DNA of 61,599 nucleotides, counting the filler, from Hausera hauseri (Eukaryota): the NCBI GenBank assembly GCA_046269625.1. It is 11 parts of 11 records of this genome, joined end to end, with 100 filler letters (N's around TTAATTAATTAA, not from the genome) between each part and the next. Parts side by side here need not be neighbours in the genome. Positions count along the whole stretch, not along the records: positions 38,916 to 43,918 come from JBJURY010364261.1; 10 more parts are not named here. The stretch is one strand, 5' to 3'. How positions within the stretch are numbered: position 1 is the first letter of the stretch; every line of letters begins with the position of its first letter. Position numbers and translations under genes: made by a program. Below the pieces are notes generated by a model. The model was not told the DNA's origin and searched no databases. It saw nothing but the letters and a program-made list of their open reading frames with translations. Shown here in pieces: positions 38,916 through 39,155 of this stretch.

Positions 38916-39155
38916 AGTCAATTGACTCGTGCAGAAAATAAATTTCAACATAGTTCGAAGTTACCGAAGAAACCTATGATTATTGCAAGTAATGAGTGTC
39001 CGTGTCGTCATGTTAGTAGTATGTATGATGCGTTCATTGTCCGAAGATTATTGATTACATTTATAAAACCAATTCAATTCAGTATGCCCATTAATTTCGA
39101 TGATCTAGAAGTTCAGAGGATTTTACAGAATTTGCGTGATAATGTTTTTAAATAA
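38916..39155 (+). CDS. C-terminus of an NS1/E1-type SF3 helicase (5' truncated)
   Basis: TRAENKFQHSSKLPKKPMIIASN..DAFIVRRLLITF: B' lysine, motif C and arginine finger; AATAAA overlaps the stop. Confidence 0.65.
   Translation, partial: SQLTRAENKFQHSSKLPKKPMIIASNECPCRHVSSMYDAFIVRRLLITFIKPIQFSMPINFDDLEVQRILQNLRDNVFK

Follow-up and report, generated by a model that had tools for sequence, protein, structure and literature searches.

A probable parvovirus NS1-type helicase terminus opposite a CRESS Rep on one contig of the Hausera hauseri assembly

Two helicases of different families lie on opposite strands and face each other on one contig of the Hausera hauseri assembly (Table 1). One is a CRESS Rep, and the other is a C-terminal fragment which, judged by its motifs and profile scores, is very probably of the NS1 type. 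The reading favoured here, with confidence somewhat above even, is that the fragment ends a short parvovirus-type NS1 encoded in the same element as the Rep, with the Rep initiating replication and NS1 mainly packaging the genome. Nicking, unwinding and packaging are the work of a single protein in ordinary parvoviruses, and the roles in replication and in packaging are therefore hard to separate. If the reading is true, a virus with both a complete CRESS Rep and an NS1 lacking the nuclease would demonstrate that the NS1 motor is retained for encapsidation, and the reason why bidnaviruses keep their NS1 would become testable. The argument that Rep initiates and NS1 packages was not found in the literature searched.

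The window, which is the whole stretch of 61,599 nucleotides that was analysed, consists of 11 short scaffolds with N44-TTAATTAATTAA-N44 spacers between them, and scaffolds across a spacer are unlinked. The NS1 fragment and the Rep share a separate contig of 5,003 bp (38916-43918), whose base 1 is position 38916. No other copy of any part of this contig was found elsewhere in the window, its two ends have no 10-mer in common, direct or inverted, within 300 nt, and an Rfam scan of the contig gave no match. The stretch was found in one public run, called X1 here, eight contigs of which run past the ends of 38916-40300; no RNA run containing it was listed, which carries no information on expression.

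Table 1. Features of the contig at 38916-43918, and the spacers of the window (positions count along the window)
Feature	Position	Strand	Basis or remark
Probable end of an NS1 SF3 helicase of parvovirus type (C-terminal 79 aa)	38916..39155	+	motifs, profiles, variants; cut at contig edge
AATAAA, candidate poly(A) signal overlapping the NS1 stop	39151..39156	+	sequence
16-nt motif, copy 1	39217..39232	+	small intergenic region behind NS1
Minus-strand frame convergent with NS1	39444..39680	-	AATAAA near 39456; 8/11 listed variants synonymous
143-aa Cys-rich ORF	39681..40112	-	no family match
CRESS Rep SF3 helicase part, with Pro/acidic tail	40205..41146	-	Walker A GSSNIGKT, Walker B IIFDD, motif C IFTYN
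Candidate HUH nuclease part of Rep	41049..41768	-	HLH and YKY motifs
27-bp inverted repeat, large intergenic region	41952..42020	.	z -10.1, 0/200 shuffles
16-nt motif, copy 2, running into an 8-bp GC hairpin	42333..42360	.	z -1.9, 8/200 shuffles
Two short ORFs, 42715-42897 and 42870-43244	42715..43244	+	no match
229-aa ORF rich in Arg/Lys, plus another frame cut by the contig end	43070..43918	+	no match
Spacers (window)	9215, 14347, 21476, 27795, 34360, 38816, 43919, 48816, 53092, 57402

Several other scaffolds of the window carry recognizable features of their own. By Pfam, a broken pol at 4815-7682 (+) is spread over several frames as pieces of reverse transcriptase, RNase H and integrase; the order of the domains suggests the Ty3/Gypsy type, and a Nckap1-like fragment (E 4e-16) is found upstream of these retrotransposon pieces at 264-848 (+). 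Type B DNA polymerase pieces occupy 23250-26361 (+), with DNA_pol_B_2 (E 9e-7) at 24021-24371 and a similar-looking stretch at 25813-26361 (+), and the whole is possibly a decayed Polinton or adintovirus. Degenerate TCGT/TCTT short repeats fill about 4.6 kb at 27895-32500 and give rise to long spurious ORFs. The end of a SET1-like gene, with N-SET and SET domains and long open frames, lies at 44020-47119 (+) on the next, unlinked scaffold, and an open 577-aa piggyBac-type transposase with a zinc finger (DDE_Tnp_1_7, E 1e-83) at 54399-56129 (+).

The fragment and its family

The plus-strand frame holds 79 open codons and ends in a TAA stop overlapping the AATAAA at 39151. No Walker A or B is visible, because the contig edge falls at the first base of the frame; the first-pass annotation had described about 79 aa without these motifs, and this description holds. 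The motifs come in the order K9, ten residues, P20, MII-A-S-N26 (MIIASN), twelve residues, A39-F40, two residues and R43, and the frame stops 36 residues later. We take K9 to be the motif B' lysine, N26 the motif C asparagine and R43 the arginine finger. The spacing noted in the first pass, K-x10-PhhhxSN followed by AF-xx-R, is present, but with 12 residues instead of about 11 before AF.

The 79-codon frame is a real coding frame. Among the related contigs of run X1, 10 of the 13 variants listed are synonymous in this frame, against 19% expected (p about 1e-5), and 1-6 of the 13 are synonymous in the other five frames over the same stretch; the p-values are indicative, as the counts comprise listed variants only, which may share ancestry. 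A total of 144 contigs of run X1 match 38916-40300, of which 95 are less than 95% alike, and 260 match the whole contig, so that many related variants must be present in that run, be they integrated copies or a mixed virus population, contig depth not being equivalent to copy number.

Standard searches with the fragment were blank. With the 79 aa present, a Pfam-type HMM scan, as the first-pass annotation had proposed, returned neither Parvo_NS1 nor any other family at E<=1, including D5-like, polyomavirus LT and picornavirus 2C proteins, and a PDB search gave nothing significant. Comparison with 1.84 billion representative proteins gave five matches, none an ATPase by Pfam, and these were rejected as mostly repeat-containing proteins without an ATPase family. 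Only one match (E 5) came from tblastn against phages, none of the 11 candidates of a longer-homologue search was scored, and viral contigs and the Atlas held no match. Two predicted models of the fold are of low confidence (pLDDT 63 and 55), and a fold search with the first returned nothing with E <1.3.

Since these searches were blank, family profiles were built from fetched loci, which were retrieved by motifs of the Walker A/B region and not by residues of the fragment, with sample labels checked with Pfam. Left out were 1 of 27 Parvovirinae and 8 of 71 E1 loci (no in-frame motif), 15 of 20 GPSNTGK loci (not NS1-like) and, on motif filters, 64 of 82 densovirus-pattern and 12 of 127 WWDGY loci, as well as duplicates and short pieces. 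On the hamaparvovirus-type NS1 profile, which comprises only five sequences and for which the highest shuffle noted was 13.1 bits, the fragment reaches 17.7 bits; the Parvovirinae NS1 profile (25 sequences) gives 9.9 bits and the densovirus NS1 profile (18 sequences) 7.9 bits, each time with none of 1000 shuffles reaching the score. Over two runs these three profiles gave 7.9-18.1 bits, again with 0/1000 shuffles. The CRESS Rep profile (9 sequences) gave 6.3 bits and the circovirus-type Rep profile (114 sequences) 2.1 bits. Among the 327 ORFs of the window, the fragment ranks first on all three NS1 profiles and on the RavA profile. The five sequences of the best profile (L109, L118, L119, L125 and L126) are presumably hamaparvovirus-type, and Parvo_NS1 is confirmed by Pfam for L109 and L119.

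The spacing of the key residues separates the families further. The K-17-N-17-R spacing of the fragment recurs in 5/5 hamaparvovirus-type NS1s, to which the fragment aligns ungapped through R43 with K9, P20, N26 and R43 invariant, and in 0/77 RavA and 0/25 Parvovirinae sequences; in the latter K also stands 17 residues before N, and the N-to-R spacing is 23 in 24/25. The comparison leaves out circovirus-type and CRESS Reps, for which the automatic count failed (78/114 and 3/9). The two best-scoring families, NS1 and RavA, are therefore told apart by the K/N/R spacing. Published SF3 phylogenies are poorly resolved (Kazlauskas et al., PMC6668415).

RavA enters the comparison because the fragment could in principle come from the end of an AAA+ ATPase of the MoxR/RavA kind, for instance a capsid-assembly chaperone, and not an SF3 helicase at all. 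RavA is the best ATPase in the PDB search, albeit weakly (E 1.4), its profile (77 sequences) gives 9.5 bits with 0/1000 shuffles, and in gapped pairwise BLASTP two RavA sequences reach 29.3 and 28.9 bits against 28.1 for the best NS1, with ASNE-P in the common stretch. Nevertheless, the RavA alignment requires a 2-residue gap and does not keep the ungapped register, RavA places N, not K, 17 residues ahead of motif C and spaces N and R by 15 in 77/77 sequences, and the NS1 profile score is 8 bits higher. Moreover, RavA, with 498 aa, extends well beyond the point at which the fragment's frame stops. A RavA-like origin is accordingly judged very improbable.

Even less probable is a helicase of the papillomavirus E1 type, such as RepE1 cressviruses or adomaviruses have, although K stands 17 residues before motif C in 60/60 E1s, as in the fragment, and RepE1 cressviruses, some of them endogenous in anemones, appear in the accessible part of a published survey (PMC11071296). 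The E1 profile (60 sequences, vertebrate-type E1s only, without RepE1) gives 4.8 bits, a score reached by 4 and 11 of 1000 shuffles in two runs, and the fragment is not the best-scoring ORF of the window on it; additionally, the N-to-R spacing is 15 in 55/60 E1s, against 17 in the fragment. The "NS1/E1-like" label of the first pass is thus retained for NS1 (17.7 bits, 17/17 spacing) and abandoned for E1.

The Rep and the remainder of the contig

The Rep helicase behaves in the opposite manner, with 63.6 bits on the profile of GKTxFALAHF-type CRESS Reps and at most 12.0 bits on the others, the hamaparvovirus-type NS1 profile (12.0) included; set against the 17.7 (NS1) and 6.3 (CRESS) bits of the fragment, these scores agree with the earlier statement that the second helicase is unlike the Rep helicase. 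The IIFDD and IFTYN motifs are found as previously described, while "geminivirus-like" proves a loose term: the CRESS type stands, and the Rep falls with the GKTxFALAHF group, with which (L099-L107, L418-L426) it shares 27-47% identity over 48-153 aa. Its best BLASTP match in this local set is L104 (E 1.7e-13). We take these loci to be probably CRESSV6-like. A Pfam scan of the Rep gave no match, the helicase part had none in PDB or, as a single protein, in viral contigs, and a homologue search yielded 506 candidates, none of them scored. As a separate observation, a 6-kb metagenome contig from the same group (L426:1704-4559) shows, by eye, a CRESS-type Rep helicase ORF directly after a Pif1-type-looking helicase ORF, which is another two-helicase arrangement.

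The candidate HUH nuclease ORF is weak by profile (3.0 bits, 7/1000 shuffles), and its listed variants are synonymous in 4/4 cases. It lies in another frame than the helicase ORF, with a 98-nt overlap, and the change of frame may reflect a lesion or an intron. In the 5' region of the Rep, at 41460-41810 (-), AT-rich GT..AG candidates of 32-52 nt suggest very short introns, and the same GT..AG rule gave no candidate intron where the two Rep ORFs overlap.

Regarding the other frames, the one that converges on NS1 is possibly the last exon of the 143-aa gene. The stretch at 43070-43918 may be the beginning of the virion-protein region. Pfam recognized no capsid gene among the plus-strand ORFs of 42715-43918, the last frame of which runs off the contig, and an Atlas search with the 229-aa ORF gave no match. 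In the variant test, 3 of 9 listed variants are synonymous in the ORF at 43070-43759, which is not significant, and the result for 42870-43244 is ambiguous (4/8 listed, against 5/8 on the opposite strand).

Each intergenic region contains one copy of the 16-nt motif, and the two (39217-39232 and 42333-42348) are 15/16 alike. A site at 39224-39238 (+) resembles the CTCF core site, as a single regular-expression match to the consensus. The 27-bp hairpin is a candidate origin; TAATATTAG sits in one arm of its stem, and five matches to NANTATTAC are present, none of them within the hairpins tested.

Linkage of the two genes and division of labour

The fragment and the CRESS Rep are likely, in our judgement with good confidence, to be parts of one ambisense virus-like element. 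A single unit is suggested by the convergent poly(A) signals and by the 16-nt motif, which occurs in both intergenic regions; one run-X1 contig joins 39148 to 39384, which is weak support with 26 letters on the short side. Rather improbable, by comparison, are two unrelated insertions that happen to adjoin, namely the tail of an endogenous parvovirus NS1 and an endogenous CRESS element. This explanation would suit the other contigs of the window, which look like animal genomic scaffolds with transposons, as well as the fact that no independent contig spanning NS1 to Rep occurs among the run-X1 matches listed. Densovirus integrations in flatworm genomes are described in the accessible parts of two papers (Herz and Brehm, PMC6880638; Zhang et al., PMC13055364), the former with clustered or concatemeric insertions in tapeworms. 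It has to contend, however, with the shared 16-nt motif, with the contig that links 39148 to 39384, and with the nearest look-alikes of both genes, which, in the published entries available, are both genes of the same chimeras.

For a single element, the proposed mechanism is that the CRESS Rep, with its nuclease and helicase, would nick at an origin within the large intergenic region and drive copying of the rolling-circle type, while the short NS1, of parvovirus ancestry, would be kept as a motor using ATP to fill parvovirus-type capsids with single-stranded genomes. By analogy with the relatives, NS1 likely has an intact Walker A/B and no nuclease, and the VP gene likely lies off the contig. 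Packaging as the main role of NS1, for which AAV and bidnaviruses are the models, is an even proposition. The helicase domains of parvovirus Rep/NS1 dock on the capsid pore via a post-sensor-1 hairpin, and AAV without Rep40/52 shows encapsidation reduced 20-fold, according to the sections consulted of Kaelber et al. (PMC12713660, the latter as cited there). Past motif C, at the place of the AAV capsid-docking hairpin, the fragment has 17 residues where Parvovirinae have 23, a difference of 6, and docking in the AAV manner may therefore not carry over.

The lengths of published NS1s bear on this division of labour. A 2024 preprint (Buck et al., PMC11071296) describes in two sentences, in the text available, parvoviruses that have NS1 and an 'auxiliary' CressRep, and the accessible supplement lists at least 15 parvovirus CressRep entries. 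In 10/10 NS1s taken from these entries the length is 184-329 aa by line count, although unannotated upstream exons could exist, and Walker A falls in about the first 45-150 residues; the ordinary NS1 ORFs used for comparison, by contrast, have 581-674 aa and 655-820 aa. The NS1s of the CressRep group, as far as these entries go, therefore have little room for a nuclease domain.

Instead of packaging, NS1 might act as a replicative helicase of the same element, either as a full NS1 with its own nuclease, the Rep being auxiliary, or as the unwinding partner of the Rep. The term 'auxiliary' used by Buck et al. for CressRep would fit, the N-terminus falls outside the contig, and what follows motif C is shorter than the capsid-docking hairpin of AAV. 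Against it stand the short NS1s of the published group and the CRESS Rep itself, which has retained a Walker A, Walker B and motif C of its own, so that a second replicative helicase looks redundant. We regard a replicative NS1 as unlikely, and of the two readings offered by the first pass, 'two replication modes' or a repurposed packaging motor, the former is the weaker, because the NS1s of the relatives, in the entries available, look too short for a nuclease.

Comparison with known systems

The pairing of two helicases, NS1 and a CRESS Rep, is already published (PMC11071296, in the part consulted), and several known systems resemble this arrangement to different degrees. CRESS viruses with GKTxFALAHF Reps (L099-L107, L418-L426) share the Rep type but differ in that no clear second NS1-type helicase is found in their 18 loci, where the best non-Rep match has 9.5 bits (E 0.015). 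Hamaparvovirus-type NS1s have the best profile score, with K9, P20, N26 and R43 in register, but they measure 655-820 aa, with long extensions, and are 18-27% identical to the fragment over the aligned part.

In bidnaviruses, NS1 is a stand-alone SF3 helicase without a nuclease, which persists as another protein replicates the genome (Krupovic and Koonin, PMC4061559, in the portion consulted). The same division would apply here, where replication by another protein is presumed for this NS1, but the replacement in Bidnaviridae is a protein-primed DNA polymerase B and not a CRESS Rep, and no such polymerase is present on this contig. It is conceivable, and offered tentatively at somewhat less than even confidence, that the NS1 and CressRep chimeras form a bidnavirus-like lineage in which the parvovirus NS1 lost its nuclease and turned into a dedicated packaging motor, with a captured CRESS Rep as the true initiator and an ambisense, probably circular genome. 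The divergent member described here would then exist in one animal as a family of copies kept by purifying selection, and may be a virus living as a multi-copy endogenous element.

Among the published chimeras, the Parvo3071 group (Parvo3071, 5161, 3580, 3723 and 3960) also combines two SF3 helicases with a short NS1, and the Rep motifs GKTxFALxH, xxFDD and FWP are common to both. Unlike the fragment, with spacings of 17 and 17, the NS1s of Parvo3071 and 5161 have 18 and 14 by eye, and the genomes of the group are listed as linear and of 3.5-3.9 kb where checked. The closest parallels in the accessible entries are Parvo5097, from an ant dataset (circular, 4,972 nt, BK066460), and Parvo6041, from a flatworm dataset (linear, 5,710 nt, BK066653), both filed as CahCressrep (PMC11071296). 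Over its first 56 residues the fragment is identical to the Parvo5097 NS1 at 18/56 positions and to the Parvo6041 NS1 likewise at 18/56, including a VSSM stretch in the latter, and 11 identical positions are common to all three; these alignments are ungapped and made by eye without a chance control. Both viruses pair an NS1-type helicase with a CRESS Rep of the same motif group, have 17 residues from motif C to the arginine, and carry an NS1 that ends shortly past the helicase core. The contig differs from both in that no VP or Cah is identified on it, its Rep is split over two frames, its Rep strand carries additional ORFs, and one run contains many related but divergent contigs.

Judging by these shared sequence features, and as far as the published entries consulted extend, the element likely works like the published parvovirus-like chimeras of NS1 and CressRep. 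What the contig contributes is a strongly divergent representative whose NS1 frame shows evidence of selection, together with the finding that NS1s in the group are short.
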